Of a DNA stretch of 62,363 nt, positions 11,315-41,046 are shown piece by piece. The stretch spans positions 1 through 62,363 of the forward strand of contig JAZDHF010000044.1 of the NCBI GenBank assembly GCA_043806315.1, read 5' to 3'. This stretch comes from Planctomycetota bacterium. GTDB taxonomy: Bacteria; Planctomycetota; Phycisphaerae; UBA1845. Within the stretch, counting starts at the first letter, position 1, and every line of letters begins with the position of its first letter. The notes beneath the pieces are model-generated. The model saw only the letters and a program-made list of their open reading frames with translations. It ran no database searches and was not told the DNA's origin. The position numbers and the translations under genes are program-made.

Positions 11315-11389
11315 GGAGCCTTGCGTTTGTCCCGGTTCGCGCCCGAGTCCGACAACTTGATCGTAGCACGCGGTGTGTAGCGCCTGCCC

Positions 11390-22061: not shown

Positions 22062-25000
22062 ATGTCCGTCAGTGAACTGACTTCATCGGTGGTGAAGGGC
22101 GTCACCAACCTGCCGCGCAAGGTTTTCGGCTCGCGCAACGAACGCTTGCTGAAGGTTTATCAGCGTCAGGTCGGACCGATCAACGCCTTTGAACCCGAGC
22201 TACGCGGCGACTATGACGAACGATTCACCCGCCGCTGCGCCGAGGAGCGCATCGCGGAGCTGCCCGAGGAGGAGCGCGAACCCGCGACCCGGCGCATCCG
22301 CGTCGAACTCAGCGAGGATCTCCATCGGCGGACGGAGTCGCTCCGCGAGCGGACGTGGGAACACTATGGACCGCTCGAACGCTGGTGGCAGACGCTCACG
22401 CCCGCCCAACGGTTGGAACACTATTACCACGACGAATACCGCAAGCGCAACGCGAAGATCATCGAGACCCTGGACCGCGCGGGAGTCAATCAGGAGGGCT
22501 TCGCCGTCCTGCGTGAGGCCTCACGCCGCGCCCAGAACCACCGCCATTTCGACTGTCAACTCATCGGCGGTCGCGTCCTCTACGAGGGCAAGATCGCAGA
22601 GATGCGGACCGGCGAGGGCAAGACCATCGTCTGCCACCTTGCGGCCTTTCTCAACGTGCTCGCCAGCCGCAAAGTCCACATCATCACGGTCAACGACTAT
22701 CTCGTGAAACGCGACGCGGAGTTCGCCACGCCCATCTTCGAGTTGGTGGGCATGACCGTCGGATACATCCAGGCCCAGCTCGATCCCGGCGGGCGCGAAG
22801 GCATCCGCCAACATGCCTATGGTTGCAACATCACCTACGGCACGAACAGCGAGTTCGGGTTCGACTACCTGCGCGACAACATGAAGTCGGCGCTGGACGA
22901 ACAGGTCCAGGGGCCTCTCGACTACGTGATCGTCGACGAGGTGGACTCGATTCTGATCGACGAGGCCCGCACGCCCCTGATTATTTCCGGGCCGACGCAG
23001 GACGACGTGACCCGCTATCCGCGAGCGGACAAGGTCGCCGCGGAACTGGTCCGTCGGCAGGTGGCGTGGGATCGCCGCGTCATGGGCACGGTTGCGAAGT
23101 TCGACGGCGACGACCACAACATCCCCAAGCTGAAGGATGCCATGTCCATCCTGGGCTACAAGGAAAAAAAGGCCAAATCCGCCAAGGTCGCCGTCACCGT
23201 CCCACCGGATGACGCCGATGACCCGGCGGCGGAACCTTCGCCGGAAAGCCAAGCCACGCTCGGTCCCGACTTTCTGACCGACGATCAGGTCGAGGCCATT
23301 CAATATTATGAGGCCGAGCACCTCAAGGTCCCCCAGCCGGAGCAGTATCGGCGGTTCTTCATTGTCCAGATGGAACGCAAGCAGGCCGCCGTGACGCACG
23401 ACGGCGTCACCATCGCCCAGGAATTGCTGGATGTGGGGAGCCTCTACGGCGGGGCGAACATGGAATGGCCTCATCTCATCGAAAACTCCCTTCGTGCCCA
23501 CAAGGTGTACCTGCGCGATAAGGATTACGTCGTCCAGAACGGTCAGATCATCATCGTGGATCCCTTCACCGGCCGTCTGATGCACGGTCGGCAGTGGTCC
23601 GACGGACTGCACCAGTCCGTGGAGGCCAAGGAAGGCGTCCGCGTCAAAGAGGAGACCCAGACCCTCGCCACCATCACCATCCAGAACTTCGTCAAGCTCT
23701 ATCGCATCCGGGCGGGCATGACCGGAACCGCCCTCACCGAGGCCAACGAGTTCGACAAGATCTACAAGCTCGACGTGGTCGAAATTCCCACCAATCGCCC
23801 CATCAACCGCGTCGATCACAACGACAAGATGTACCGCGACGCCGAGCAGAAGTACGGCGCCATCGTTGAGGAAATCTTCGAGATGCACCGCCGCGGCCGA
23901 CCGGCGGACCCCTTCCTGCTCGCCGACGTCTTTCGGGCGATAAGGCCGATTCTGGAACGTCAAGGCAAAGAGACCGCCAAGGTGGATGAGGCCCTGCGCC
24001 GCTTCAACTCGGCCGAGTACGGCGACAAGAAAGTCATCGGCTTCATGCTCGACACCTACGACGAGGTGATGGGCGACCTCGCCCGCGGGCGCCCGATCCT
24101 GGTGGGCACGACCAGCGTCGAAAACTCGGAGAAGCTCTCTCGCCTTCTCGAACACCGCTACGGGATCGAGCACGAGGTGCTCAACGCCAAGAACCACGCC
24201 CGCGAGGCGGAGATCGTCGCCAAGGCGGGGTTTTGCTCGCTGCCGGTGCTGGGCAACGACAAGACGCTCCGCGGCCACGTCACGATCGCCACGAATATGG
24301 CCGGTCGGGGTACGGACATCAAGCTCGGCCCCGGCGTCGTCTATGCCAAGTGCAAGGTGCCGGATAAGCTACCGGACGGCGCTAGGCACAGTCCCTTGTT
24401 CCCCTCCGGCGTCACGAAATGCTGCGTACACTGCGAGGAGTACGACCCGGCCACCAACTGTGCCCATTGCTACAAACCCAAGATCGACCCGCGTTTCCCG
24501 GCCCTGGGTCGCAAGGTTTGCACGGTCGCCGTCCCCTGCGGGCTGCACATCATCGGCACCGAGCGGCACGAGGCCCGCCGCATTGACAATCAGCTTCGCG
24601 GTCGATCGGGCCGGCAGGGCGACCCCGGCTCATCGCGGTTCTCCCTCTCCTTGCAGGACGATCTGCTCAAGCTGTTCATGTCCGACTGGATGCTGAAGAT
24701 GATGGAGCGCCTGGGCTTCACCGAGGGCACGAGTCTGGAGGACAAGCGGCTCAACAAAGGCATCGAGCGCGCCCAACGGAAGGTCGAGGAGCGCAACTTC
24801 TCCACCCGCAAGCACCTTCTCGAATGGGACGAGCCGATGGACTTCCAACGGAAGGAGTTCTACACGGCTCGGCAACGCATCCTGGAGGAGCGCGATCTCC
24901 CCGAGCTGATCCTCGCCACCATCGACAACGCCATCGACACCACGCTCAAGCAATACCTCAGCGGGCGCTACAACCGGGCCTGCATCGTCGAGTGGTGCCG

Positions 25001-26315
25001 CACGCACCTCGACCTGACCCTCGACGAAGACGCGATCGACATGAACTACCTGGAGTCCGCTCAGGCCAGCATCCGCACCAAGGCCAAAGACGAAGCCTAC
25101 GACATGATCCGCACCTCCCTCGGCGAGTACATCGACGCCGAAGAGCCGCCGAGCGAATGGGACGTGGGCGGATTGCTGCAATGGGCGCGGCGGGTCTTCA
25201 AGCTCTCCACGCTCACCCAAAACCAACTTCGAAAGATGGAACCGCGTGATATCGAGGACGTCATCTGCAAAGCCGCCGAAGCCCTCTACGACGACGTGGA
25301 CCTGTCCGGCATCGCCATGTACCTCGATCCGCAATATCCCTATCGCGCCCTCAGCGAATGGGCCCGCACCAAGTTCAACATCAAGGTCGAGATGGAGGAG
25401 TTGCTCGACCGTCCGCAAGAGGAAATCCGTGAGCTGTTCGACCGCCGCGTTCGAGAGGCCTATCGCCAACGGGAGATCGTCTACCCCGTCGAGTGGTGCC
25501 TGGAACGGGCATTGGCCGGGGAGACGGCCGACAATGCCGCCGCCGCGGCGGCGATCGCCGCTTGGGCCAACGGAAAGTTCAACGTCGAATGGAAACTGGA
25601 GGATGTCCAAAGTCAGTCGCCCGCCGAATTGCACGAGACCCTGGTCAAGCTCAACGAGGAGTTTTTGAACGGGCGGCTTGATCGCGAGATCGAACAGGGC
25701 ATTGCCGGCAAGGAGCGCGAGCCCGCCGTGGAATGGGCCAAGAACCGCTTCGGACGCGCGTGGAACCAACAGCGTTTTGATCGCTTCAATGGCGAGCTCA
25801 AGGACGCATTGCTCGCCCAGGGCCGTGAGATGTTGCGCTGGGAGCTCACCCGCCTCGAACAGTTCGTCCTCCTGCGTATTTACGACCAGGCCTGGAAAGA
25901 TCACCTGCTGGAAATGGACCACCTCAAGACCGCGATCATGCAGCGCCCCCTCGGCGGCGACCAGACCCATCCCCAAAGCCAGTACGCCATCGAGGGCCGC
26001 GACCTCTTCACCCAGATGTGGGGGCGCATCGCCGGCCGCGTCACCGATATCGTCTTCAAGGTCCGCGCGACCGCCGGACCCGAAGGCGACGGTCGAGGCG
26101 AGGCCCAACCCGGACCGCGGGCGCTGGCTTTCAGGCACGCCGACGCCACCGGCGCCGGGTTTACCTCCGCCGACCAGCAAGCAGCCATGCGCGCCCAGGG
26201 CGTCGAGGGCAAAGTCGAAACCATCCGCCGCGAACAACCCAAGGTCGGCCGCAATGCTCCCTGCCCCTGCGGCAGCGGCAAGAAGTTCAAGCAATGCCAC
26301 GGCAAAGGAAACTAG
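22062..26315 (+). CDS. secA: Preprotein translocase ATPase SecA (unusually long, 1417 aa)
   Basis: Walker A MRTGEGKT, then [28 protein letters not shown] and [29 protein letters not shown]. The C-terminal zinc motif is [14 protein letters not shown]. Confidence 0.95.
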
Positions 26316-26316
26316 G

Positions 26317-26428
26317 GAATTACGAATTACAAATTACGAATTACGAAGCAGGTGTCTTTCCCTCCGCCGCCCGGCACTCAGGCTCCGCTTTCGTAATTTG
26401 TAATTCGTAATTTGTAATTCGTAATTCG
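26317..26428. repeat. Heptad-built palindrome (AATTACG/AATTACA)n ... (CGTAATT/TGTAATT)n
   Basis: The left arm is GAATTAC GAATTAC AAATTAC GAATTAC GAA (26317-26347). The right arm is its complement with one extra heptad (26390-26428). The spacer is about 42 nt and the element fills the secA-oxoprolinase intergenic region. It is probably a terminator or REP. Confidence 0.8.
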
Positions 26429-26434
26429 TTTCGT

Positions 26435-29400
26435 ATGCGCGAAGCGGCGTGGCAGTTCTTCATCGACGTGGGCGGCACGTTCACGGACATCGTCGCCCGC
26501 CGCCCCGACGGGGAGTTGGTTACCTACAAGCTTCTTAGCTCCGGCGTCATCCGCGGCCAGTGCGGGGAAGGTTCGACCACCGACTGCATCATCGACTCCC
26601 GCCGCATCGGCGAACCCGACGACCTCTGGGTCGGATATCGAGTAACCGTTCTCGATGTCGTGCATCAGAGCCGGGAGCGCAAGCGACCGGTTTCCTCCTC
26701 GACGAACGTTGCGCGTTTCGATCCGCGTACCGGTCGCCTCCACGTGGACCCGTTCCTGGAGGTCCCTCCCTCAGTCGCCATGTCCTACGAGCTTGAATCC
26801 GACGAGGAAGCCCCGGTCGTCGCGATTCGTTTACTCATGGACCTGAAGCTCACCGACACCATCGGTGAGATCGACGTGCGTCTGGGCACCACCCGCGCCA
26901 CCAACGCCCTGCTGGAACGCAAAGGAGCGAACGTCGCTTTCATCACCACCAAGGGCTTCGGCGACATCCTCAAGATCGGTTATCAGGATCGACCGTCGTT
27001 GTTCGAACTGAACATCCGCAAGCGCGAGGAACTTGCCCAATCGGTCATCGAAATCGACGAGCGACTTTCCGCCGGCGGCGAAGTCCTGCGCACGCCTGAC
27101 GCACGGGTCGTCCGCCGCCAACTCGAAGAAGCGAAGGCCTCCGGGGTCGAAGCCGTCGCGATTTGCTTCCTCCATTCGCACGTCAATCCGATCCACGAAG
27201 AACTCGTCGCGGGCATCGCCGAATCCGTCGGGTTTTCGCACGTTTCCGTCTCCTCGCGCTTGATGCGTCTCGAACGGATAGTGCCGCGCGGCGACACCAC
27301 CGTCGTCGACGCCTACCTCAGCGGGGTCACCCGCTCGTACGTCGCCTCGCTCCGCCGCTCTATGCCGCAGGCCCGCATCCGCCTGATGACCAGCAGCGGC
27401 GGGCTCATCGACGCCGCCCTCGCGTCCGGCAAGGACACGATCCTCAGCGGTCCGGCGGGCGGCGCCGTCGGCTGTGCCCACGTGACGTACGCGGCGGGCT
27501 TTGACCGTGCCATCGGCTTTGACATGGGGGGCACCAGCACCGACGTCTGCCGCATCGAACCGCCGCCGGACTCCTTCGAGTATCAGCACGAAACAGTCAA
27601 AGCCGGTGTCAGAATCATGGCACCGATGATCGCGGTGGAGACCGTCGCCGCGGGCGGCGGCAGTATCTGCGCCTTCGACGGGCAGAAGCTCACCGTCGGC
27701 CCGCACAGCGCCGGCGCCGACCCCGGTCCCGCCTGCTACGGCCGAGGCGGACCGCTCACCATCACCGATATGAATCTGGCGCTCGGGCGCATCGTGGCCG
27801 ATCACTTTCCCTTCCGCCTGGACCGCGAGATCGTCCAGCGCCGTCTGGCGGGTCTCTGTGCCGAAGTCAACGCCGCGACCGGCTCATCGCTTTCTCCTTT
27901 CGAACTGGCCGACGGCTTCATCAAGATCGCCAACGCCAACATGGCCGCCGCCATCAAGCGGATTTCCCTCGCCAAGGGCTATGATCCCGCACATTACGTC
28001 CTGACAACCTTCGGCGGCGCCGGCGCGCAGCACGCCTGCGCCCTCGCCCGGACGCTGGGCATCACACGGATCCTCTGCAGTCCCTTCGCCGGAGTTCTCA
28101 GTGCCCTGGGGCTGGGCGTGGCCGACGTGAAGCGCATCGGCCAGCGAAGCGTCCATGTCCGGCTCGACGCCGAATCGACACGCGTTCTTGAGCCGGTGTT
28201 CCAGGCGATCGCGGAGGAACTTCGTCGTTCGCTGATCGAGGAGGAGATTGCGTCAGCGGCGACGGGACCGGCGGCACGAGCAATGGATGTCTGTTACGTC
28301 GGGCAAGCGAGTCTGATTACGGTTCCGGCCGCGCCCTCCGACCAGACGCGCGAGCGCTTCGAGCATCTTCATCGACAGCTTTACGGCTACTGTCACGAGG
28401 GGCGAGATATTGACATCCGCGTAGTGCGCGTCGAGTTGACCGCGCGTTCGGAGCGCGAGAGTCCGCGCGGGCTGCGCCCCGCGACTCGGGGGCGCGACCG
28501 AACGGCGCCCGCAGATTGGGTCGAGCATGAAATGGTCGTCAAGGGAATCCGCCGACCGGTACGCCTCTATCTTCGCGGACGGCTTTCACCGGGAGATCGG
28601 TTGCTCGGCCCGGCCATTGTGATTGAGGACACCAGTACGATCGTGGTGGACCCCGGTTGGGAGGCCACGGTGACCGATGCCGGTGACATCCTGCTCACCG
28701 ACGCCGCGACCGCGACGGACGATGAAGTGGTTTCCGCCCGCGTCGATCCCATCCGCCTCGAACTGTTCCACAACCAGTTCGCCGCAGTGGCCGAGCAGAT
28801 GGGCGCGACCCTGCGACGAACGGCGCTTTCGGTAAACGTCAAGGAGCGGCTGGACTTTTCCTGCGCCGTCTTTACCCCCGGCGGCGATCTGGTCGCCAAT
28901 GCCCCGCACATTCCCGTGCATCTCGGCGGAATGAGCGACTGCATCAAGGCATTGATGCAGGATGTCGCGGCGTTCGAGCCCGGCGACGTGTACATCACCA
29001 ACGATCCCTTCCGCGGCGGTTCGCATCTCAATGACGTCACAGTGATCACGCCGACCCACGATGATCGCGGCGAGCGTATCTTGTTTTTCGTCGCCAGTCG
29101 CGCCCACCACGCGGAGATCGGCGGCACCCGGCCCGGCTCCATGCCGCCCGACTCGACTTGCCTCGCCCACGAGGGCGTTCTGATCCGCGCGTTCCGTTGG
29201 ATCGTGGACGGGAAGCCGCAACAGGAACGTCTACGAGCGTTGCTCACTGCGCCTCCGTATCCGTCACGTACGCCGGACGAGAATCTCGCGGACATCGCCG
29301 CCCAAGTCGCGGCCAACCAAAGGGGCGTGCACGGTTTGATGGAAATGGTCGCCCGCTACGGCGTCGATGTGGTTCACGGTTACATGCACCATATCCAAGA

Positions 29401-30340
29401 CGCGGCCGAGCGGAAGATGCGATCCGCGATCCGCAAACTGCCCGAAGGCGTGCATCGGTTTGAGGACCGGCTGGACGACGGCTCGGCGATCCGGCTGGCA
29501 GTCGCGGTCGAGGGCGACTGCGCCACACTCGACTTCACCGGCACCGGCCCCGTGCTCAAGGGCAATCTCAACGCCAACCGGGCGATCGTCACGAGTGCGG
29601 TGCTCTACTGCCTCCGGTGTCTGATCGACGAGGACATTCCCCTCAACAGCGGCGTACTCGCCCCAATTACGGTCATCTTGCCGGAATGTTTCTTGAATCC
29701 GCGGGGTTCGCCCGATCCGTTGCAGTGTCCGGCCGTCGTCGGCGGCAACGTCGAGACCTCCCAACGGGTGGTCGATTGCATCTTCGGGGCGTTGGGCACT
29801 GTGGCCGCCGGCCAGGGTACGATGAACAATGTACTGATGGGCAACGAGCGATTCGGGTACTATGAGACAATCTGCGGCGGAGCCGGCGCAGGACCGGGCT
29901 TCGACGGCGCGGATGCGGTGCACACGCACATGACGAATACACGGCTCACCGACCCGGAAGTCCTCGAATCGCGGTATCCGGTGCGCCTGGTGCGTTTTGC
30001 CATCCGCCGAGGATCGGGCGGGGCCGGGCGATACCGCGGCGGATGCGGAGTCATTCGGGAGATCGAGTTCTTGGAGCCGCTGGAAGTGTCGATCATCAGT
30101 CAGCGTCGTACCACCGCGCCGTATGGATTGCACGGCGGCGGCGACGGCCAACGCGGGCGAAACATACTCCGTCGAGTGGGAACTGACGCCGATGTGGAAC
30201 TTCCGCCGATCGTTAGTATTTCCGTTCATGCGGGCGACCGATTGACTATCGAGACCCCGGGCGGCGGCGCATGGGGGAAAGTGAAGTTCGAGGCTCGGAG
30301 TGCGAAGTGCGAAAGAGACCTTTTGAACTTTGAACTTTGA
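26435..30340 (+). CDS. Fused hydantoinase A/B family enzyme (5-oxoprolinase-type, ATP-hydrolysing)
   Basis: 1301 aa. The HyuA-like N-terminus is [16 protein letters not shown] and the HyuB-like half starts around [20 protein letters not shown]. The overall size and architecture match eukaryote-type 5-oxoprolinases. Confidence 0.85.
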
Positions 30341-30343
30341 ACT
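30299..30343. repeat. Short heptad tandem repeats (AGTGCGA x2; TTGAACT x3) spanning the stop codon
   Basis: AGTGCGAAGTGCGA (30299-30312) and TTGAACTTTGAACTTTGAACT (30323-30343). They encode the last residues (..[13 protein letters not shown]) and the stop of the upstream gene. Confidence 0.7.
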
Positions 30344-30415
30344 TCGACGTAGTTTGTGAGGGTTGGCGAAAACATCAGACGGACGCATCGCCTCGTGAAC
30401 CCGCGCATCACATCC

Positions 30416-32155
30416 ATGGAGAACCTCATTGCCTCCGACCCAGGCGGGCGGAACGTCTTCGGTCTGGTCGTCGCGGATCAGCTTCGGCTCGCTGCCCAGT
30501 CGTTGCGGTTGGGCAGGCGTGTGGGCATTGTGAGCGGGTTCTATATTCCGCAGGCAGGCGCCGGCGAGACTGACGGCCCGCCGGGCGCAAAAGTCGTCGG
30601 CGACGCCCTTCGCGCCCTCGGCATCGAAGTGGATTACATCACTGACCGCTGGAACGAACCGCTGTTTCGCGCCCTTGACATCGAACCGCTTCTCGAACCG
30701 CACGACTACGTGACGCGAGTACAGCCCACGCACCTGGTCGCCGTCGAGCGCGCCGGTCGGGGCCGCGACGGACGGTATCGCAACATGCGGGGCCTCGACA
30801 TTTCCGCGACCACTGTGCCGCTCGACGAACTGTTCTTGGAGGCAGGACGGCGGGGATTGACCACCATCGGCATCGGCGATGGCGGCAACGAGATCGGCAT
30901 GGGCAAGGTGTTCGCCGAAGCTCTTTCGACCATCGACCACGGAGCGGACATCGCCAGCACTGTGGCCACCGACTTTTGCATCGCCGCCGGGGTGTCGAAC
31001 TGGGGGGCGTACGGGCTGGCCGGGGCGTTGTCCGTGCTTACAGGCCGTGATTTGCTGCCCTCGGCCGAGGACTGCGTGAAGGACATTGTTCGCGTCGTGC
31101 AATCGGGTGGTGCCGTGGACGGCGTCACCCACCGTCGGGAAGCGACTGTCGATGGCCTAAAGCTTTCCGCCAGTGTTCGGATGCTCGAGAACATCCGCCG
31201 CCAGATCACCCCCTCGCCCTTGGAGAAGGGCGAGTCGTTGTTGGTGGGGGTCCTGGGTTACGGCGAGACGGGTCGATCTGCGTCGGCTCTGCTGAGCAAG
31301 CACGGCCACCGTGTCCGTATCTCCGATATCGGAAGCCTCACCCTGGAGCGAGGTCTGGTCGTCGATGGGGTCGAGACCGGCGGTCATACCCTTGATTTTC
31401 TGCAGGGCTGCGACCTCGTCGTCGCCAGCCCCGGCGTCCGCGAGGACAGTCCGATCCGCGACGAGCTTCACCGTCGCGGCGTCCCGGTGATGAGCGAACT
31501 GGAAATGGCCTTCCAGCTCTGCCCGCGCGATCTGATCGCCGTCACCGGCACGATCGGCAAGCGCACCACGGTCGAGCTTCTGCAGTCATTGTTCAAGTGC
31601 GCGGGTCGGACGCTGACCATCGGCGGCAATCGCGGGTTACCCCTATCCGCACTACTTCTCGACCGCGAGGACCCCCCTGAATCCCCCCTTACAAAGGGGG
31701 GAAAGAGGGGGGTCACCGCTTCCGACCCTATTGCCCTCGCGGTCTCAAGTTTCCAATTGGAGACCGTGGTCCATTTTCGTCCGCACATCGCCATTCTCCT
31801 CAACATCGACGAGGCCCATCTCGACCGCCACCGCTCCATCGCCGAGTACATCCGCATCAAGAGCCGCATCTTCATGAACCACCGGCCCGACGATATCCTC
31901 ATTCTTCCCTTCGACGACGAGCGACTGCGGACGCTCTCCCGTAAGCACCATGGCCGCACTTTCTTCGTCTCGCGCAAGCAAGCCGTCGATCGCGGGGCCT
32001 GGCTCGCCGACGGGGCGATCTGGACGAACATCGACGGAACCGTCGAGCGCATCGGCGACGCCGAAGCCTGCCCATCGGCCCGTTATCCGTATCCCGAAAA
32101 CCTGCTGTCCGCCGCAATCGCCGCTCGCCTCTGCGGCCTGCCCGCCGCCGTGTAA
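30416..32155 (+). CDS. Fusion protein: DUF4392 (D-glutamate cyclase-like) domain + MurD-like Mur-ligase N-terminal and central domains, with no Mur-ligase C-terminal domain
   Basis: The N-terminal half has GFYIPQAGAGETDGPPGA and GIGDGGNEIGMGKV, which are DUF4392 hallmarks. The C-terminal half aligns by eye to MurD: LVVASPGV, VTGTIGKRTT (P-loop), GGNRGLPLS, AVSSFQLE, LLNIDEAHLDRH, YIRIKSRIF. It ends at ..ARLCGLPAAV, where MurD domain 3 would begin. The start is ATG 30416, with an alternative GTG at 30356. Confidence 0.7.
   Translation: MENLIASDPGGRNVFGLVVADQLRLAAQSLRLGRRVGIVSGFYIPQAGAGETDGPPGAKVVGDALRALGIEVDYITDRWNEPLFRALDIEPLLEPHDYVTRVQPTHLVAVERAGRGRDGRYRNMRGLDISATTVPLDELFLEAGRRGLTTIGIGDGGNEIGMGKVFAEALSTIDHGADIASTVATDFCIAAGVSNWGAYGLAGALSVLTGRDLLPSAEDCVKDIVRVVQSGGAVDGVTHRREATVDGLKLSASVRMLENIRRQITPSPLEKGESLLVGVLGYGETGRSASALLSKHGHRVRISDIGSLTLERGLVVDGVETGGHTLDFLQGCDLVVASPGVREDSPIRDELHRRGVPVMSELEMAFQLCPRDLIAVTGTIGKRTTVELLQSLFKCAGRTLTIGGNRGLPLSALLLDREDPPESPLTKGGKRGVTASDPIALAVSSFQLETVVHFRPHIAILLNIDEAHLDRHRSIAEYIRIKSRIFMNHRPDDILILPFDDERLRTLSRKHHGRTFFVSRKQAVDRGAWLADGAIWTNIDGTVERIGDAEACPSARYPYPENLLSAAIAARLCGLPAAV
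31672..31716. repeat. C6/G6 hairpin element inserted in frame inside the MurD-like region
   Basis: ATCCCCCC-TTACAAA-GGGGGG-AAAGA-GGGGGG-T encodes ..PESPLTKGGKRGV.. at a position where E. coli MurD has no residues. A second copy lies at 59460-59497 in intergenic DNA. Confidence 0.7.
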
Positions 32156-32187
32156 AAACGGGTGCCACTCGCAGCTCGTCCGCGAGT

Positions 32188-32323
32188 GCCTTCAACTTTT
32201 CAACCCTTGAACCCTTCCCACTCTTCAAACCCTTGAACTCCTCCCACTCTTCAAACCCTTGAACCCCTCTCCCCCTTTACACCTTTCAACCTTCCGCCCT
32301 TGAACCCTTCAACCTTCCGCCCC
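32188..32323. repeat. Low-complexity direct repeats (CCCACTCTTCAAACCCTTGAAC x2; TTCAACCTTCCGCCC x2)
   Basis: Copies at 32217-32238 and 32243-32264, and at 32285-32299 and 32308-32322. They start about 30 nt after the stop of the fusion gene. The TTGAAC-rich composition resembles the heptads at 30323-30343. Confidence 0.7.
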
Positions 32324-32371
32324 GCCTTGCCACACCACACGCGACCCCTGGAAAGCGTCCCCCACACAACC

Positions 32372-32485
32372 TCGCAGTTTGTCCGGCAATGTCCCTCCAG
32401 GTCGGCTGAGCATCCGATCGACCGTCTGAACCAGCCGACGCGTTCGCCGCCGGTCACCCAATTGCGCTTTCCCGAAATGCTCCAT
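32372..32485 (-). mobile_element. IS4/Tn5-like transposase N-terminal (DNA-binding) fragment
   Basis: MEHFGKAQLGDRRRTRRLVQTVDRMLSRPGGTLPDKL matches the LGD-x-RRT-x-RLV...PG-x-S/T-LP pattern at the N-terminus of Tn5-type transposases. Nothing recognisable follows. Confidence 0.55.
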
Positions 32486-32831
32486 CCCCAAACTGACCGC
32501 CTCGCCTTGCAGGGCCTCCATGCCCCACGCTCCTTCCCTTCGCGGCTCAGGGCAGGCCTTGTATCTGAAACCCGTCCGCAGGAATCCACTCCGGCGGCTA
32601 CTCATAATGTACCCGAGATGTGGGTAAACCTAAGGCGCCGACCCGGGGGCCAAGACCGAAGGGCGGGCGGCCGGCTCGGTCGCCCGTCTTTCCCCTCTTC
32701 GGGATTGGCGCCCAAGCGGAAAATCCCTCGCGGCGCAGCCGCGAGTTCCCAGTGTGAAAACTCCGGGAGGCGGTCTCCCGGACGTAGCGAACTCAGAACG
32801 ACATAGACTCCATCTCACGCTGAACCAGCAC

Positions 32832-32960
32832 ATGCGTCGGAGGCATTTGCGTGAACACCCCAACATTCTCAAACGACTGCTGATTCACGTCGCCGGATTC
32901 AATCTGAGTTTGGTGCTGCGGAAGATGCTGGGTCTGGGAACGGCCCGAGGCTTGCAGGGT
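32832..32960 (+). mobile_element. IS5/IS1182-like transposase C-terminal fragment
   Basis: MRRRHLREHPNILKRLLIHVAGFNLSLVLRKMLGLGTARGLQG resembles the extreme C-terminus of IS5/IS1182-group DDE transposases. No upstream catalytic region is present. Confidence 0.55.
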
Positions 32961-32992
32961 CTGACGGCGGCGACGCGGCGGGAACGAAGAAG

Positions 32993-33178
32993 GTGTACGA
33001 TGACATGGTGAAGCTGGCGGCAACGCTGGCGAAGTACGCGCCAAAGGTTTGTCAGTGCCCGATGAAGTGTGAGGGCGAGAAGAGCTACGACAAGCCCGGA
33101 AAATGCCCCAAGTGCGGCATGGACCTCAAGGACGCCAAGTCGCACGTCGACCATGAGGCCGAGCACGGGGGACATTAA
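32993..33178 (+). CDS. Small heavy-metal-binding-domain (HMBD-like zinc-ribbon) protein, possibly 5'-truncated
   Basis: CQCPMKCEGEKSYDKPGKCPKCGMDLK fits the CPMH...PG-x-CP-x-CGM-x-L HMBD pattern, with a His-rich tail (HVDHEAEHGGH). It begins directly at the IS fragment and uses a GTG start. Confidence 0.5.
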   Translation: MYDDMVKLAATLAKYAPKVCQCPMKCEGEKSYDKPGKCPKCGMDLKDAKSHVDHEAEHGGH

Positions 33179-33295
33179 CGATGACCGGGGCCCACGTCCG
33201 ATGAGGGAGATGGCTGACGGGCGGCCACACGAGAGAGCCCCAGACCCGATTCGGAGTGGCCTTGGATTTCGGGACATGTTCGGTACGGGTCCGCG

Positions 33296-34864
33296 TTGGC
33301 GATTGGATCCGCAACGGAAAATGCTATGATAGTGCGCAAGATGAGTGGGAGATCGTGTGTCGTGTTGCTGGCCGGCTTGACCTGTTCGTGCGCGCGGGTG
33401 GACCACACGGCGGAGTTTCGTCAGGCGGCCGGACAGATGAAGACGGCGTCGGGCCTGGAACCACCGTGGGGCGACGGCGCCGAGCCGCAGGACTTGACGC
33501 TGGACGACGGCGACGTGCTCCCCCTGGATCGCGCCGTCGTGCTGGCTCTACGCAACAACCGGTCCCTTCGCGCGGATCTGGAAACGATCGCGTCGGCCAA
33601 GGCGGATCTCGTACAGGCCGGACTCCTGTCGAATCCGATGCTTTCGGTGATGGCGCGTTTCCCGGAGGGCGGCGGGCGGGCGAGTCTCGATTTCGGTCTT
33701 TCGAAAGACATTGCGGAACTGTGGTTGATCCCCAGCCGCAAACGGGCCGCGCAGCGGATGCTCCAGCGCACGATCCTGTCGTTCACGGATTCGGCCGTCG
33801 CCCTGGTCAACGAAGTGAAGACGACTTACTACACGGTTGGCTATCAGACTACGGCGATCGAGTTGCAGAATCGGAACATCCGGGTCTTGCAGGAGACGGT
33901 GGAACTGGCTCAGGCGAGGTTCCGCGCCGGCGATACGAGCCAGCTCGACGTGAACCTGACGCGAAGTCGGCTCATCGAGGCGCAGTTGGAGCTTCTGGCG
34001 CTTCGAACCGAATACGGGACTTCGCAGCGCACGCTGTTGCGTATGATGGGCGTCGCCGCGTTTCCCGGCGAATGGAGATTCCAGCCAATCGAGCCGCCGC
34101 GTCTTACCGTCGCGGAAGACGAATCCGTCGTGGAAAACACGGCCTTGGAACGGCGACTGGATGTGCAGGCGGCGTGGTGGGAGGTCGAGACCGCCGCGGC
34201 CGACGTGGAGCAGCAGCGCCTCCGCCTGTTTCCTTCATTGGGGCTGGGGCTGTCGGCGGAACGACCCGAACGTCGGGCGACGCCGGGACGCAAACTCTTG
34301 GCGGACACAGCCAGAGCCTCAGCGGCAAACGGAGCGCTGACGGCGCCGGATATCCAGTCCCGCGCTGAGCGCCGTCGCGAACGCAGCCAGGAGATCGACG
34401 CCGTCCTCGGTCCCTCGATCGAGGTTCCGTTGCCGATCTTCGACCAGAACCAGGCCCAGGTCGCCAAAGCACAGGCTCGGGCGCGGGAGTTAAAGCAGCG
34501 TTATGAAGAGATCGAGCAGCGCGTCGTCGAGGGCGTGCGTACCGCACTGTACACCTATCGACTGGCGCAAGAGCGGGTCCGGGTGTTCAAGGAATCCCTC
34601 CTTCCCCAGCAGGACGCGAACCTGCGCTTCGCGGAGAAATCATACCAGGCCGGTCAGGAAAACATCCTGACCGTTCTTCTGGCGCAGGAAGCGCTCATCC
34701 GTTCGCAGCTCAGCGCCGCGGCGGCGGAGCGCGATCTTGCAGTCAGTTCGGCCAACCTCGAACGCCAGCTCGCCGGTCAAATCCCGGACTTTTTGCTTCA
34801 ACCTGCCGAAACTGCGTCGCCGTCCGCGCTGCCGGAGGGCGGAGAAAAGAACAACGATAACTGA
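33296..34864 (+). CDS. Outer-membrane efflux protein, TolC/CzcC/CusC family
   Basis: A lipoprotein-like N-terminus (VVLLAGLTCSCA) and a duplicated OEP-type coiled-coil pattern (LDRAVVLALRNNRSLRA.., ..LTRSRLIEAQLELL..). It is the first gene of a three-gene RND operon. An alternative start is at 33326. Confidence 0.8.
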   Translation: MAIGSATENAMIVRKMSGRSCVVLLAGLTCSCARVDHTAEFRQAAGQMKTASGLEPPWGDGAEPQDLTLDDGDVLPLDRAVVLALRNNRSLRADLETIASAKADLVQAGLLSNPMLSVMARFPEGGGRASLDFGLSKDIAELWLIPSRKRAAQRMLQRTILSFTDSAVALVNEVKTTYYTVGYQTTAIELQNRNIRVLQETVELAQARFRAGDTSQLDVNLTRSRLIEAQLELLALRTEYGTSQRTLLRMMGVAAFPGEWRFQPIEPPRLTVAEDESVVENTALERRLDVQAAWWEVETAAADVEQQRLRLFPSLGLGLSAERPERRATPGRKLLADTARASAANGALTAPDIQSRAERRRERSQEIDAVLGPSIEVPLPIFDQNQAQVAKAQARARELKQRYEEIEQRVVEGVRTALYTYRLAQERVRVFKESLLPQQDANLRFAEKSYQAGQENILTVLLAQEALIRSQLSAAAAERDLAVSSANLERQLAGQIPDFLLQPAETASPSALPEGGEKNNDN

Positions 34865-34887
34865 CCCGACTTTTCAGGATCGCTGCC

Positions 34888-36861
34888 ATGCCGTCGCCAT
34901 CGAGTAACTCAGTCGGAGAGCAGGGGACATCCGTCCTCGGCCGTCTGTGGACGTTCGTTCGGATCATGAACGTCCGACTTCGATTCATCTTCCTGATGCT
35001 CCTCGTGGGCCTGCTCGTCGGCTACTGGGAAACCGTCATGAACTACTACGACCGATGGACGAGACCGGAAACCGTCGTTGCGGCTGTCCAAGCCGAAGAG
35101 ATCGAATACTACTGCGCGATGCATCCCAACATCGTGCGTTCCGAGCCGAGCCAATGCCCGATCTGCGGGATGCCGCTGTCGAAGCGGTCCAAGACGGCCG
35201 CGGCGCAATTGCCGGAGGGTGTTCTGGCACGCCAGCAACTGAGCCCTTACAGGGTAGCGCTGGGGGGCATCGCTACCTCGCCCATCGAGTATCGCCTGCT
35301 GGCGCGGGAAATCCGTACCGTCGGCATTGTGGATTACGATGAGACCCGTCGCGCCTTCATCGCCGCTCGTATCAAGGGGCGCATCGACAAGCTGTTCGTG
35401 AATTATGAAGGACAGCACGTCGAGAAGGGCGACCCTCTGGCTTGGATATACAGTCCGGACCTGCTCACGACGCAGGAAGGTCTACTGGTTGAATACCGCC
35501 GACTTCAGCAGATGCGGGCCGGCAACAGCTCCGACCTCGCCGCCCAGGAATCATTGGTCGAGGACGCCAAGAAAAGACTGATCCTCTGGGGCATTACCGA
35601 ACGGCAAATCGACGAAATCCTCGCCCGCGGCACGTCACAGACTCACCTCGTCATCTACTCACCGATGGCCGGCATTGTGACGGAGAAGAACGTGCTTGAG
35701 GGCCATTATGTGGAGGCAGGCGGAGACCTTTATACGATCGCGGATCTCAGTCGAGTTTGGATGCAGGCGAAAATCTTTGAAGACGAGATGGCCGGCGTCG
35801 ATGTCGGCAGCGCGGTGGAAACCAGGAGCACGGCCTACCCCAATGAAATCTTCGCCGGGCGGATCGCGTTCGTCGCGTACACGGTAGACCCCACGACCCG
35901 AACCGTGGCGGCCCGGGTGGAAGTCGATAACCCAGACTACAAACTGAAACCGGGCATGTACGCCCAGGCCTACATTCGACTGCCGGTCGGCAAAGTGACC
36001 GTACTAACGGAGGAGGAGGCGAAAGCCGCCTTGGCGCCCCAGGCTGCGAAACCTTCCGCCACATCGACGGACGTCCTGACGGCCGCGTACCTCGATCTCG
36101 TCGCCGCGTTCTTTAACGACAAGACGGACGAGGCGGCCCTCGCCAAGCTGCGTTCCGAGGCCGAAACCCTCAAACAGCGTCTCACCGGCGAAGCCGCCGC
36201 ACACTCAGGCGCCATTTTCGAAAGCGCCGTCGCCATGACCGGCAAGCCCCTCGCCGAGCAACGCAAACAGCTCAAGTCCCTCAGCGCTCACGCCATCGAG
36301 CTGCTACGGAAGAATCCCCCCGCCCAGGTCACCCTGTACGTCGTGCACTGCCCGATGGTCCCGGCTGACTGGCTGCAATCGCGGAAGGGAATCAACAATC
36401 CCTATTACGGACCGGAGATGGCCTACTGCGGTGAAGTGACCGGCTCCATTGAACACGCCGCCGGCGGACAGGACCCGCGGTTCGCGGTGGGTTACTACTG
36501 CCCGGTTTTTCCCGATCGGCTTTACGAGAAACCGGAAACCTGCCCACTGGACAAGTTTCCGTTGAAACCGGCCAGGGTGGAGAGGGTTCTTGCTGTTCCC
36601 GCATCCGCGATTGTGAACACGGGCAAGCGGAAAGTCGTCTACCGCGAGAGCGCTCCCGGCACCTTCGATATGCTCGAGATTGAAGCGGGCAACCGGGCGG
36701 GCGAATTCTATCCCGTGGTTACGGGCCTGAAGGAAGGTGATCGCGTGGCGACGGCCGGGGCCTTTCTCGTCGACGCCGAGAATCGTTTGAATCCCGCCGC
36801 GAGCGCCCAGTACTTCGGCGCCAGCGGCGGACCGCAAAGCGGTCAGCAGGACAAACATTAG
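34888..36861 (+). CDS. RND efflux periplasmic adaptor (CusB/CzcB-like) with N-terminal HMBD and an internal DUF3347-like insert
   Basis: The HMBD is YYCAMHPNIVRSEPSQCPICGMPL and the MFP core includes IKGRIDKLFVNYEGQHVEKGDPL. An extra helical segment is followed by VVHCPMV...WLQ and a degenerate second CP..CP motif. Confidence 0.8.
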   Translation: MPSPSSNSVGEQGTSVLGRLWTFVRIMNVRLRFIFLMLLVGLLVGYWETVMNYYDRWTRPETVVAAVQAEEIEYYCAMHPNIVRSEPSQCPICGMPLSKRSKTAAAQLPEGVLARQQLSPYRVALGGIATSPIEYRLLAREIRTVGIVDYDETRRAFIAARIKGRIDKLFVNYEGQHVEKGDPLAWIYSPDLLTTQEGLLVEYRRLQQMRAGNSSDLAAQESLVEDAKKRLILWGITERQIDEILARGTSQTHLVIYSPMAGIVTEKNVLEGHYVEAGGDLYTIADLSRVWMQAKIFEDEMAGVDVGSAVETRSTAYPNEIFAGRIAFVAYTVDPTTRTVAARVEVDNPDYKLKPGMYAQAYIRLPVGKVTVLTEEEAKAALAPQAAKPSATSTDVLTAAYLDLVAAFFNDKTDEAALAKLRSEAETLKQRLTGEAAAHSGAIFESAVAMTGKPLAEQRKQLKSLSAHAIELLRKNPPAQVTLYVVHCPMVPADWLQSRKGINNPYYGPEMAYCGEVTGSIEHAAGGQDPRFAVGYYCPVFPDRLYEKPETCPLDKFPLKPARVERVLAVPASAIVNTGKRKVVYRESAPGTFDMLEIEAGNRAGEFYPVVTGLKEGDRVATAGAFLVDAENRLNPAASAQYFGASGGPQSGQQDKH

Positions 36862-36888
36862 TCGGCGCCGCCAGCCGCGAGGGCGGAC

Positions 36889-39800
36889 ATGGTCCCAAGG
36901 ATCATCGAATACTGCATCCGCAACCGCTTCATCGTGCTCATGATCATGGCCGGTGTGGCCGTGTGGGGCGTCTATTGCGTGCTCAAGACGCCGATCGACG
37001 CCATTCCCGACCTTTCCGAAAACCAGGTCATCGTCTTCACCGATTGGATGGGTCGGGCGCCGCAGGAAATCGACGACCAGATCACCTATCCGCTGTCGGT
37101 GAACTTGCAAGGCCTCGCGGGCGTGAAGGCCATCCGCTCGGCGAGCGAATTCAACTTCTCGATGATCAACATCATCTTCGACGAGCACACGGACTTCTAC
37201 TTCGCTCGCACGCGGGTCCTCGAACGGTTGAACATCGCCGGCACCTTCCTGCCCGCGGGGGCAGTGCCCTACCTCGCCCCTGATGCGACGGCGCTGGGAC
37301 AAATCTTTTGGTATACGGTGGAAGGCGACGGCTACAGCATCGACGAGCTGCGTGCCGTTCAGGACTGGTATGTCCGCTACCAGCTTTACGTTCCGGGCGT
37401 AGCCCAGGTGTCCAGCGTCGGAGGGTTCGTCCGGGAGTACCAGATCGACGTGGACCCCGACAAGCTGCGGGCGTTCGAGATTCCGCTCAGCACCGTCTTC
37501 GACGCCGTCGCCCGCAGCAACATCGCCGTCGGCGGCAAGGTCTATTTCGAGAACAACGCCGAGTACCTGATCCGCGGCGTGGGCTGGCTTCGCGGCGTCC
37601 ACGACCTGGAAAACGTCGTCGTCGCCGAGCGCAAGGGCGTGCCGATCTACATTCGCAACCTCGCCGCGGTGCAACTCGGTCCCGAATACCGCCGCAGCAT
37701 GTTGGAGAAGAACGACCGCGAGGCCGTCGGCGGCGTGGTGATGATGCGCTTTGGCGAGAACCCGCTGGCCGTCACCCAGTCCATCAAGGAACGCATCGAG
37801 CAATTGCAGGCGGGGCTCCCACCCGGCGTTCGCATCGTTCCCTTCTACGACCGTACCCGTCTAATCGATGGCGCCATCCACACCCTCGTCAGCACGCTCA
37901 CGCAAGAACTGATCGTAGCCAGCATTGCGATTCTGCTGATCCTGGCTCATTTCCGCAGCGCGATCGTCGTGTGCAGCACCCTGCCGATGGCCGTGCTCGT
38001 GGCGTTCATTTTCATGTATTACCTGGGCGTGCCCAGCAACATCATGTCCCTGTCCGGCATCGCCATTTCCATCGGTCTTTTCGTGGATGCCGCCGTGGTG
38101 ATGGTCGAGAACACGATCCACCAGTTGACCAAAGAGCATGGATCGGCCCGGATTCGCGGCGACACAACGGAAGCGGTGGTCCGCGCCTGCCGGTTGGTCG
38201 GCGCACCCATCTTTTTCGCCATGCTGATCATGCTGGTCTCGTTCATTCCCGTCTTTGCACTGGGCGGCACGGAAGGAAAGATGTTCCATCCGCTCGCGTT
38301 CACCAAGACGTTTGCCATGATCGGCGTGGCCATCATGGCCGTGACATTCGTGCCGGCGATGATTCCGATCTTCGTCAGGGGCCGCCTCCAGCGCGAAGAG
38401 GACAACTGGTTCGTCCGCACTTTCATCAACATCTACAAGCCGGTCCTGACTTGGCTCATGCACGTGCCCGCCGCGGGCATCTGGTTCATGGGTTTTTTGT
38501 TCATCGTCGGGACCGGGTTCATTGGGAGCCGTTCGCTTTTTCTGGGCATGCTCGCCCTGTCGTTGTTTTTCGGCAGCGTGTTCTTTCGACGGGCGTGGAG
38601 TAAGGGGCTGGCGTTCGTTCTGCTGTTCGCGACCGCGGTGTGGGCGTGGGGATTCCCGAAGCTGGGACGCGAGTTCATGCCTCCCCTGGACGAGGGGAGC
38701 GTTCTCGACATGCCCGTGACCGTCCCGCGAGTCTCGATCACTCAAGCGGCCGACGACATCCGCGTACGCGATGCGGTCATGCGCGGCTTCCCGGAAGTGG
38801 ACCAGGTCGTCGGCAAGGTCGGTCGGGCCGACACACCCACCGACCCGTCCGGCATCGACATGGTCGAGACGGTGGTCACTTTGCGACCCAAGGAGTGGTG
38901 GCCCAAGCGTAAGCTGCAGTTCAATGACGCCCTTGACGAAGCCCGACGATTGATCGCCGTCCTTCAGGAGAAAGGTCAACTGAAAGAGGATCTCGCCAAG
39001 GACGCGATCGAGACGCTGGCCAACAACGCGGCGATGGATGCGACGGTGGAGTTCGACCGCGCGATGCGCGATCTCGCCCTCCGGAGGCAGTTGGAGTTCG
39101 AGCCGGTGCTCGCCGAGCGTCTGGTTCGTGGGACCGTCGACGACCTCCTACGACTTTTCCGAACGAAGGGCGTCCTCAAACACGAGCCGGCGACGGCGGA
39201 CCTCGGTCCGATGATCGCGCCGCTCGTCAAGGAACACGGCTTGCTTCTCGTCGAAGTGCCGCGGCAGGAGGAAATAACTAAGCTCGTTGATTCGATCGCC
39301 CAGCGTCTTTCCGATCTCGGCGCCGTGGACAGGACGCCGGAGCTGCTTCTGCCGCGAGCCTTGTTCTGGACGGATCTGCGCGACGCGGTCCTCACGGCCC
39401 TGGGCGGCGAAAAACTGACGCTCGTCGGCGACTTGTTCGAACGCTGGCAACAGCGACTTCACGACGGTTGGGTCGAACGCGTCAGGGTGCTGAATTGGGA
39501 GCTAGAGGACCAGGCCGGCGGCGGCATGGTCTGGTCGCTGCTCACCGTCCTACGAGGACATGCCGAAGCAACCGGTCAGATCGCCCGTAATCCGAGCGAC
39601 GCCGACCTCCAGGCCATCCGCGCAACAGAGGAAGCGAGTTTTCGCAAACGCATCTTCCTCTGGCACAAGCTCAAGAGCGACATCGTCAAGGAAATGGACA
39701 GCGAACTGCAGATGCCCGGCTGGGGCAACATCTGGACGCAGCCCATCATCAACCGCGTGGATATGCTCGCCACCGGCGTGCGCACCATGATCGGCGTCAA

Positions 39801-41046
39801 GGTCTTCGGTCCCCGCCAGGAGGATCTTACGGAGAACACCGTCGAGAACGGCGTCGCGCGGGAGGTCGTGAAGGAGAAGGGTATTCAGTCCATCGCCAAC
39901 GAGCTCGCCGCCGTGCTCCGCGGCATCCGCGGTGCCGTGGACGTTTTCCCCGACCAAATCGTCGGCCGCAGCTACCTGCAGATCGACATCGATCGTGAGA
40001 AAGCGGCCCGCTACGGCGTCAATGTGTCGGAGATCGAGGAAGCGATCGAGGTGGCGATGGGGGGAAAGACGATCACGACCACCGTCGAGGGGCGACGACG
40101 GTTCCCCGTTCGCGTCCGCTACGCCCGCGATTTCTGGCAGACCGAGGACGCCCTTCGACGGGTGCTGGTTACCGGTAGACGAGGGGCGAGCGCCGAAAGA
40201 ATCGCAACCGGAAGCACGACGTCGCCCGCTTCTATGGGTAGGGATAACTCCGCCGCGATGGCCGGCGGCGAGGTCTTCCAGATACCCATCAGCGAAGTGG
40301 CCGACATCAACGTCGTCGAAGGCCCGAGCGTCATCAAGAGCGAAAACGGCATGTTGCGCTCCTATGTGCAACTGAACGTTCGCGACCGCGACATCGTCGG
40401 TTTCGTCGAAGAGGCCCAGCGCGCCGTCGCGGAACAGGTCAAACTTCCCACCGGTTTCTTCATCGAATGGAGCGGCCAATTTGAGCACCAGGTCCGGGCG
40501 AAGAAAACGCTCCAGGTCATCTTTCCGATGGTCGTGCTGTTGATGTTCGTCATCCTCTACATGACTTTCAACGACGTCCGCGATGCGCTGCTTATCATGC
40601 TCTCCGTGCCCGGGGCCCTGATCGGCGGCGTCATCTTTCAGAGCCTCTTCGGCTTCAATTTCAGCGTGGCCGTCTGGGTCGGCTACATTGCCTGTTTCGG
40701 GGAGGCGACACAGACCGGCATCGTCATGCTCGTGTACTTGCACGATGCGATCAACTCCCGCGGCGGGCTTGCGAAGATCGCGACCCCAAGCGAACTCACC
40801 AATGCGATCATCAGCGGAGCGGTCCACCGGCTTCGCCCGAAACTCATGACCGAGGGCGTGGCCATCGTCGGCCTGATGCCCATGCTCTGGGCCACGGGGG
40901 TCGGGGCGGAAGTCATGAAACCGATGGCGGCCCCGGTGCTAGGTGGCCTGTTGGTGGCGGACGAGGTCATCGATCTGCTACTGCCGGTCGTGTTCAATTG
41001 GTACCAGAGCCGCCGTTGGCGCCGCTTACACGCAGTAGTCCCTTGA
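36889..41046 (+). CDS. cusA: Heavy-metal efflux RND pump, CusA/CzcA family (expanded, 1385 aa)
   Basis: The N-terminus is [16 protein letters not shown]...[35 protein letters not shown]. There are 12-TM RND topology blocks, and large extra segments relative to the usual length of about 1040 aa. Confidence 0.9.
   Translation: [1385 protein letters not shown]

Follow-up and report, generated by a model that had tools for sequence, protein, structure and literature searches.

A recurrent bacterial fusion of a DUF4392 domain with a MurD-derived module whose Mg-ATP site is remodelled

Contig JAZDHF010000044.1 of the Planctomycetota assembly GCA_043806315.1 (Phycisphaerae; UBA1845), analysed here over positions 1 to 62,363 and referred to below as the window, encodes a fused HyuA/HyuB protein of the ATP-dependent lactamase/oxoprolinase family (hyuAB; open reading frame A, ORF A) and, directly downstream, a protein (ORF B) in which a DUF4392 domain is followed by domains 1 and 2 of MurD, the ligase that adds D-glutamate (D-Glu) to UDP-N-acetylmuramoyl-L-alanine (UDP-MurNAc-L-Ala). 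Database clusters that share this architecture number at least 150 and span Phycisphaerae, SAR324 and Desulfobacterota-type lineages; throughout this family the MurD-derived module keeps nearly all of the conserved residues of its two domains except in the site for the phosphates of Mg-ATP, which has been remodelled. Although the component families are all known, neither their combination nor the remodelling of the MurD site has been described before; full-text literature searches returned no paper on the fusion, on bacterial DUF4392/DUF1445 pairs or on a link of these to MurD or 5-oxoprolinases, and databases label the fusion proteins merely as "DUF4392 domain-containing" or "glutamate cyclase domain-containing." The reading that we favor, tentatively and at a little under an even chance, is that ORF B supplies the DUF4392 part of a D-Glu/5-oxoproline system, is tied by its MurD-derived binding domain to the pool of UDP-MurNAc-L-Ala, and has HyuAB as a partner.

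The most likely start of ORF B is the GTG at 30395, given that homologues begin at the equivalent position (consensus N-terminus MNPRITSIENL...), and this start leaves a gap of 54 nt behind the hyuAB stop, within the 15-75 nt allowed by a preliminary description that a model had made from the sequence alone. Alternative starts are a GTG at 30356, the first possible one, and an ATG at 30416; residue numbers given below follow the 599-amino-acid form that begins at GTG 30356. Both genes lie on the plus strand, as had been claimed, and each of the motifs quoted in the preliminary description (ETDGPPGA, GDGGNEIGMGKV, GTIGKRTT, GGNRGLP, SSFQLE, DEAHLDRH, and YIRIKSRIF) is present in the ORF B translation. 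Homology of the two halves to DUF4392 and to MurD, respectively, was upheld by profile searches: PF14336 is matched over its entire length (profile positions 1-291 of 291; E 7e-75; 252.6 bits against a gathering threshold of 27.9), PF08245 (Mur_ligase_M) is matched with an E-value of 2e-18, and the MurD N-domain models PF21799 and PF21377 are matched slightly under their cut-offs. The full-length murD model TIGR01087 is matched only in part (positions 2-256 of 441) and below its cut-off (169.4 versus 211.95 bits), and Mur_ligase_C (PF02875) has no match in ORF B or in any listed homologue. In alignments to 3lk7 and 1e0d, ORF B ends at approximately residue 290 of E. coli MurD, the boundary between domains 2 and 3, and its C-terminus is intact, homologues being alignable to residues 595-597 of 599. 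An AlphaFold2 model of ORF B, built with 71 homologues, reached a mean predicted local distance difference test score (pLDDT) of 89.2 and a predicted template-modelling score (pTM) of 0.88, the latter suggesting a fixed arrangement of the domains. In Foldseek comparisons, the N-terminal half of the model was matched to the archaeal DUF4392 protein TON_0340 (target-normalised TM score 0.81-0.87, with 0.87 for 4fc5; root-mean-square deviation approximately 2 A), and the C-terminal half was superposable on MurD domains 1 and 2 over approximately 315 aligned columns (E 4e-20).

DUF4392 is conserved from archaea to humans and constitutes the C-terminal half of the animal protein DGLUCY/C14orf159. 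The mouse protein composed of DUF1445 and DUF4392 is a D-glutamate cyclase, though the activity has been assigned to neither domain (PMC5339696), and TON_0340, for which the metal ligands have been listed, is a weak Mn-dependent phosphatase whose best substrate is AMP and whose cavity is small and invariant (PMC5132392). All six acidic ligands of TON_0340 (E59, D61, E115, D157, E161, and D246) are kept in ORF B, as E71, D73, E131, D175, E179, and D266, and all six are invariant in 71 family members.

To what extent the second half has remained MurD was assessed by alignment of 160 fusion proteins with 118 canonical MurDs, positions being numbered from E. coli residues 8-220. Among the 28 positions of domains 1 and 2 that are at least 93% conserved in MurD, 26 are kept by the fusions; the kept positions include S71-P72-G73, G114, K115, T117, G137, N138, S159, Q162, H183, K198, and the equivalent of N271. 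The domain-1 equivalents of G12, G17, D35, and S71-P72-G73 are conserved across the fusion proteins, as are the P-loop lysine (159 of 160), the histidine equivalent to H183 (158), and the lysine equivalent to K198 (157); in the window, K402, T404, N425, H488, and K502 correspond to K115, T117, N138, H183, and K198. The exceptions all fall in the Mg-ATP phosphate site. Specifically, the glutamate at position 157, which every one of the 118 canonical MurDs possesses, occurs in none of the fusions (Ala in 153, Ser in 6, Thr in 1; A462 in the window), and the Walker-A Ser/Thr at position 116 (116/118 MurDs) has become Arg in 150 fusions and Leu in seven (R403). Similarly, N113 (Asn in 112/118) is replaced mainly by Ile (86), Val (47), or Arg (11; I400 in the window), and D182 (Asp in 109, Asn in nine) mainly by Ala (115), Glu (20), or Leu (12), with Asp in only four fusions (A487). 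Conserved positions of domain 3 are gaps in the fusion proteins at 19 of 19 positions. The proposed assignment to MurD domains 1 and 2 is right, but the motif-by-motif match to the ligase fails at E157, the Walker-A Ser/Thr, N113, and D182, and the loss of Mg-ATP ligands is a point that the preliminary description overlooked.

E157 itself is reportedly a Mg ligand of MurD, a result attributed to work by Bouhss et al. and by Bertrand et al. from 1999. According to a review that follows Bertrand et al., UDP-MurNAc-L-Ala is bound by L15, T16, D35, T36, R37, G73, and N138 of MurD and ADP by G114-T117, N271, R302, and D317, while H183 binds Mg2+ and a conserved Glu and His common to the Mur ligases serve Mg2+ (PMC9780078); a role has also been described for the carbamylated K198 (PMC4816537). 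Set against these assignments, the module looks to be under strong constraint to bind a MurD-like substrate, without the canonical first metal site or the closing domain. Canonical ligase activity of ORF B is unlikely, given that the Mg-ATP ligands are lost family-wide. Since UDP-MurNAc-L-Ala-type features and the P-loop lysine are kept while Mg-ATP ligands and domain 3 are lost, the module would be a ligand-binding pseudo-ligase, serving as a sensor or in substrate docking, rather than a working ligase. None of the canonical MurDs nearest to it exceeds 44% identity, and these belong to unrelated phyla, for which reason we regard the module, on the strength of this comparison, as an old specialised paralogue that is distinct from the resident murD.

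The breadth of the family bears directly on whether ORF B is a functional protein. Within the best 120 database clusters (62-97% identity) a single architecture is seen, with lengths of 563-656 amino acids and one exception of 710; six longer proteins (864-945 amino acids) carry an added DUF1445 domain (PF07286). A search from a distant member extended the fusion to SAR324, Thermodesulfobacteriota, Syntrophobacteraceae, and Deferrisomatales bins, and dozens of residues are invariant in each half across the homologues. A recent joining of two genes had been named in the preliminary description as one of the findings that would undo its proposal; with at least 150 clusters sharing the architecture, the fusion is no product of a local deletion. 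Truncation of MurD domain 3 by an insertion sequence or transposase was considered and rejected, as every homologue has the identical end point. More generally, the notion that ORF B is a decaying remnant, either a murD truncated by a transposase or a chance fusion devoid of function, could draw upon the transposase fragments and repeats found directly 3' of the gene and upon one divergent fusion of 596 amino acids (P0137) in which Arg stands at the P-loop Lys and neither H183 nor K198 has a counterpart. Nevertheless, one architecture, one length (563-650 amino acids) and one end point are maintained across several phyla by over 150 clusters, and P0137 is a singleton; these conservation data effectively refute the remnant reading, and we accord it next to no probability. 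A catalytically dead clade around P0137 was likewise rejected, since this protein has no close database relatives.

ORF A contains, in order, Hydant_A_N, Hydantoinase_A (E 1.7e-87), Hydant_A_C, and Hydantoinase_B (E 1.5e-198), in agreement with the fused HyuA/HyuB enzyme originally proposed. Its closest solved relative is a fused N-methylhydantoinase of 1288 amino acids (7hk5; E 1.6e-134), caprolactamase and the acetone and acetophenone carboxylases being more remote, and it falls far short of the cut-offs that NCBIfam sets for its caprolactamase and acetophenone carboxylase equivalogs. Judging indirectly from gene neighborhood, in that DUF1445/DUF4392 neighbors are found with PxpABC in Clostridia, ORF A may act on 5-oxoproline (L or D) rather than on hydantoins, caprolactam, or ketones. 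The association of hyuAB with the fusion gene was scored in 13 Phycisphaerae-type loci with sufficient upstream sequence and in six loci of other lineages. Of the former, 12 have a hyuAB orthologue as the immediate, co-oriented upstream neighbor, with secA ahead of it wherever the contig extends that far; in locus L080, secA is directly upstream of the fusion gene, without hyuAB. In L009 (6660-10004) the upstream ORF has 1114 amino acids, of which the C-terminal HyuB half alone is homologous to the HyuAB of the window. In L003, L005, and L009, the stop of the upstream gene (hyuAB, or this HyuB-half ORF in L009) and the start of the fusion gene overlap, an arrangement that favors co-transcription of the two genes in Phycisphaerae.

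A more general partner than hyuAB is DUF1445 (PF07286), the N-terminal domain of the animal cyclase, which adjoins the fusion gene or is fused to it in 9 of the 18 loci with enough flank, including loci of SAR324 and Deferrisomatales. It is found directly downstream in L002, L003, L004, L005, L006, L010, and L167, directly upstream in L168, and fused C-terminally in L082/P0104. In the window, the position at which relatives often have DUF1445 is occupied by repeats and transposase fragments, and in L083, a relative with 97% identity, DUF1445 is absent and the downstream genes are different again.

It is at this point that a second explanation, which we consider unlikely, has to be weighed, namely that ORF B is a non-canonical ligase. 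Under this explanation, MurD domains 1 and 2 would make the acyl-phosphate while DUF4392, together with DUF1445, would replace domain 3 and present D-Glu, possibly made in situ from 5-oxo-D-proline such that ligation pulls the unfavorable ring opening; the outcome would be a salvage route or a supply of D-Glu independent of glutamate racemase. The invariance of the UDP-MurNAc-L-Ala-binding positions and of K115, H183, and K198, the end point that falls exactly on the domain 2/3 boundary in every member, the fixed arrangement suggested by the model, and the fusion of DUF1445 at the domain-3 position in some proteins would all suit such an enzyme. The latter argument is weakened by the linker on which the fused DUF1445 of P0104 hangs, a low-complexity stretch of approximately 50 residues; this arrangement looks like read-through of an intergenic spacer rather than a structural substitute for domain 3. 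Further arguments against a ligase are the replacement of E157 in every fusion, the Walker-A Arg, the replaced N113 and D182, and the failure to reach the TIGR01087 cut-off. The fusion moreover occurs in Desulfobacterota-type lineages, which generally have ordinary dcw clusters. The ATP ligands contributed by domain 3, R302 and D317, are absent as well (PMC9780078), and a cultured member of the Phycisphaerae has been reported, at the level of annotation, to possess a complete murA-G set including murD (PMC13514998). In favor of a ligase, MurT/GatD offers a known case in which a partner enzyme serves a core resembling a Mur ligase (PMC6085368, PMC6113224).

A more specific version of a ligating enzyme, which we think less probable again, would have the fusion and DUF1445 (in Phycisphaerae with HyuAB) feed D-Glu into peptidoglycan precursors by a hitherto unknown route, without any free D-Glu made by a racemase. 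In a composite active site formed by DUF4392 and the MurD module, the di-manganese domain would take the place of the lost Mg site as well as of MurD domain 3, and D-Glu would be joined directly to UDP-MurNAc-L-Ala, being derived in situ from 5-oxo-D-proline or else from an inversion at the 5-oxoproline stage.

Independent of the fusion, the neighborhoods of standalone DUF4392 genes, surveyed at 69 loci from many phyla, are informative as to what the domain does. Firstly, DUF1445 adjoins DUF4392 in 28 of the 69 loci, nearly always directly upstream, and such neighbors are a split form of the animal enzyme. Secondly, in four loci, all from Clostridia, DUF4392 and DUF1445 lie among genes for PxpB and PxpC, with PxpA detected in two; the function of PxpABC as a 5-oxoprolinase is documented (PMC13274462). 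DUF4392 and DUF1445 thus stand beside both HyuAB and PxpABC and are therefore linked to two unrelated kinds of 5-oxoprolinase, which, along with the DUF1445 neighbors, lends independent support to the glutamate/5-oxoproline theme on which the preliminary description was built. Two of the four Clostridia loci also hold a class-IV (D-amino-acid-type) aminotransferase. The DUF1445 and DUF4392 genes are interleaved with the pxp genes in L029 (4075-10789), where a beta-lactamase-family hydrolase and an amidohydrolase are also encoded, and in L072 (6323-11583), where a class-IV aminotransferase is. In Dehalococcoidia, the neighbors of standalone DUF4392 are mostly housekeeping genes (MutS-, UvrB-, and RecG-like by sequence) and are functionally uninformative.

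Thirdly, DUF4392 lies directly upstream of murL-murD2 in 3 of the 69 loci, from Omnitrophota, Rokubacteria/Methylomirabilia, and an alphaproteobacterium. The link between DUF4392 and MurD that had been noticed as a fusion accordingly recurs as separate genes in three phyla, and the domain is, by the evidence of gene structure and gene order, tied to MurD-type enzymes by two independent routes. That DUF4392 might be a regular companion of murL-murD2 was considered and rejected: it is present at 3 of 80 murL loci, such that the link recurs across phyla but is rare. A tblastn search of the window and of fusion loci found no murL in any of them. In the murL survey itself, murL and a murD2-like gene were adjacent in 77 of 80 loci (L086-L164), with hosts among the Patescibacteria/Candidate Phyla Radiation (Saccharibacteria, Paceibacterota), Acidobacteriota, Binatia, Clostridia/Ruminococcaceae, Bipolaricaulota, Poribacteria, and an anammox planctomycete, a range far wider than the few genera given in a 2021 minireview (PMC8788868).

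Class-III aminotransferases accompany standalone DUF4392 in 22 of the 69 loci, mostly directly downstream (L012-L028, L043, L064, L068, and L073, mostly Rokubacteria/Methylomirabilota). Outside Phycisphaerae the contexts of the fusion vary: in a Thermodesulfobacteriota bin (L166, 4432-11761) the fusion gene directly follows a 2-oxoglutarate dehydrogenase operon (sucA-sucB-lpd) and overlaps the stop of its E3 gene, and in L169 it lies within a carB-like/GATase/SIS-CBS/GT4 cluster. These contexts favor a third explanation, in our estimation doubtful though not negligible, that the di-manganese DUF4392 domain and the remodelled P-loop form a composite enzyme whose substrate is a small molecule, phosphorylated or linked to a nucleotide, from outside peptidoglycan metabolism, for example in an ATP- or acyl-phosphate-dependent step of glutamate, 2-oxoglutarate, or 5-oxoproline metabolism, the MurD ancestry being incidental. 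The weak Mn-dependent phosphatase activity of TON_0340, with AMP as best substrate and a small invariant cavity (PMC5132392), is in keeping with this explanation, as is the coincidence of the loss of Mg ligands in the module with its fusion to a metal-binding domain. It accords poorly, however, with the 26 of 28 retained MurD-specific positions, which include contacts to UDP-MurNAc-L-Ala (the L15/T16 region, D35, G73, and N138; PMC9780078) and which suggest that the MurD ligand or a near analogue is still bound, and with the murL-murD2 neighborhoods, which independently point to peptidoglycan.

Returning to the reading that we favor, in which the MurD module is a pseudo-ligase, ORF B would represent the di-manganese DUF4392 half of a bacterial two-part enzyme of the D-glutamate-cyclase type, with DUF1445 as the usual partner, and this half would have permanently gained a module from MurD domains 1 and 2. 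The fusion protein would thereby link how free D-glutamate and 5-oxoproline are interconverted with the status of the pool of peptidoglycan precursors; a shortage of D-Glu leads to a build-up of UDP-MurNAc-L-Ala. In Phycisphaerae, co-expressed HyuAB would spend ATP in reopening 5-oxoproline to glutamate. The reading is supported by the kept metal ligands and fold of TON_0340, by the strong constraint on a binding site that lacks the canonical catalytic metal site, by the occurrence of the fusion in at least three lineages, by the DUF4392-murL-murD2 gene order, by the proximity of two types of 5-oxoprolinase, and by the DUF1445 neighbors.

Several observations weigh against it. The preliminary description had placed DUF4392 in a D-glutamate-cyclase family, which is correct insofar as the domain is part of DGLUCY, but cyclase activity has not been assigned to DUF4392 as such (PMC5339696) and TON_0340 behaves as a phosphatase rather than a cyclase (PMC5132392). 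DUF1445 is, moreover, absent by tblastn from the entire 62-kb window, which thus holds only one of the two domains of the animal cyclase, and it is missing from about half of the fusion loci. The adjacency of DUF4392 and hyuAB, which had also been proposed for examination, holds in Phycisphaerae but in none of the six loci outside them, such that the genes would form at most a loose module. Finally, the invariant K115, H183 (the second Mg site), and carbamylated K198 seem to be more than a pure binding domain would need. Given their invariance, some phosphoryl chemistry may survive in the module, with metals drawn from the DUF4392 site or with Arg acting in place of Mg. Taken together, the surroundings of DUF4392 are consistent, comprising DUF1445, two unrelated 5-oxoprolinases, and, twice independently, MurD-type proteins, and they yield a concrete hypothesis in which D-glutamate/5-oxoproline homeostasis would be coupled to the step at which cell-wall precursors receive D-Glu. 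The remodelled-site MurD module is widespread and bears on the re-use of the Mur-ligase fold; in practical terms, annotation pipelines could mistake DUF4392-MurD fusion proteins for MurD.

The coordinates of the two genes, of the domains of ORF B and of other features of the window are collected in Table 1. The two heptamer arrays between secA and hyuAB are mutually reverse-complementary and could form a stem of approximately 33 bp (dG -52.7 kcal/mol; z -7.1 versus shuffles), which may act as a terminator or processing element dividing secA from hyuAB. Related heptamers, (TTTGAAC)x3.3, occur at 30322-30344 and overlap the 3' end of hyuAB. Scans of positions 26000-33400 yielded no promoter-like sites and no more terminator-like sites than expected from shuffled sequence, and a hairpin 3' of the ORF B stop was not significant (z -1.0). 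The efflux set downstream comprises an OEP outer-membrane factor, a CusB/HlyD-type adaptor with a heavy-metal-binding domain, and an AcrB/CusA-type pump.

Table 1. Genes, protein domains and repeats located in the 62,363-nt window (residues in the 599-amino-acid numbering).
Feature	Position	Strand	Remarks
PrkA - DUF444 - SpoVR	8027-12943	+	conserved trio
Eco57I/MmeI-like restriction-modification enzyme	13022-16531	-	large, single-chain, type IIG-like
PF00144 beta-lactamase-family gene	19843-21615		shortly upstream of secA
secA	22062-26315	+	precedes ORF A
7-bp tandem repeat arrays (GAATTAC)n, (TTCGTAA)n	26317-26347, 26390-26429		between secA and hyuAB
hyuAB (ORF A)	26435-30340	+	1301 amino acids; fused HyuA/HyuB
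DUF4392::MurD(N+M) fusion gene (ORF B)	30395-32155	+	586 amino acids from GTG 30395 (most likely start)
DUF4392 / GLUCM-like_C domain	30416-31198	+	residues 21-281; PF14336
MurD-like N-terminal Rossmann-type domain	31244-31492	+	residues 297-379; UDP-binding domain 1
Mur ligase central domain (MurD domain 2)	31541-32152	+	residues 396-599; PF08245; remodelled Mg-ATP site
Rearranged region downstream of ORF B	32156-33250	.	repeats, transposase fragments; DUF1445 here in many relatives
23-26-bp tandem repeats	32195-32322		Tandem Repeats Finder (TRF)
Transposase fragment	32309-32605	-	Tnp_DNA_bind match
Transposase fragment	32754-33011	+	IS5-type C-terminus-like by eye; no Pfam match
Heavy-metal/resistance-nodulation-division (RND) efflux set	33296-41046	+	three genes

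Comparison with characterized systems places the components of this locus among known families while setting their combination apart. Relative to MurD, the module of ORF B is clearly homologous in domains 1 and 2 (3lk7; E 1.5e-25), but it is devoid of domain 3, and hence of the D-Glu site and the R302/D317 ATP ligands, and it sits behind a fused DUF4392 domain. In the MurD2/MurL pathway, in which L-Glu is ligated and then epimerised in an ATP-dependent manner, a standalone DUF4392 gene, with or without DUF1445, is found upstream in L031, L042/L104, and L069; the MurD-like proteins of these loci, unlike the ORF B module, extend over the full length of MurD and exceed the TIGR01087 cut-off. The lipid II isoglutaminyl synthase MurT/GatD is similar in that a Mur-ligase-derived core lacks a normal amino-acid-binding domain 3 and a second enzyme supplies the nucleophile (PMC6085368, PMC6113224), yet MurT has retained a C-terminal domain, its ATP site is, to current knowledge, competent, and its partner is a glutaminase, not DUF4392 or DUF1445.

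On the side of the DUF4392 half, TON_0340 of Thermococcus onnurineus (PDB 4DWZ, 4FC5, and 5GL2-4) has a fold in common with the N-terminal half of ORF B, at approximately 35% identity, but it is a single-domain protein whose only known activity is that of a weak phosphatase, to which architecture ORF B adds the MurD module. Animal DGLUCY (mouse 9030617O03Rik, human C14orf159) likewise shares DUF4392 with ORF B, in the order DUF1445-DUF4392 and without a MurD module; ORF B has the MurD module in a window without DUF1445, and in its relatives the counterpart of that domain is encoded adjacently or fused. ORF A, compared with the HyuA/HyuB family (7HK5; caprolactamase, 6YRA), keeps the whole fused A-B architecture. 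The 5-oxoprolinase PxpABC, though non-homologous to HyuAB, is paired with DUF4392 and DUF1445 in Clostridia in a manner functionally parallel to the pairing with hyuAB in Phycisphaerae.

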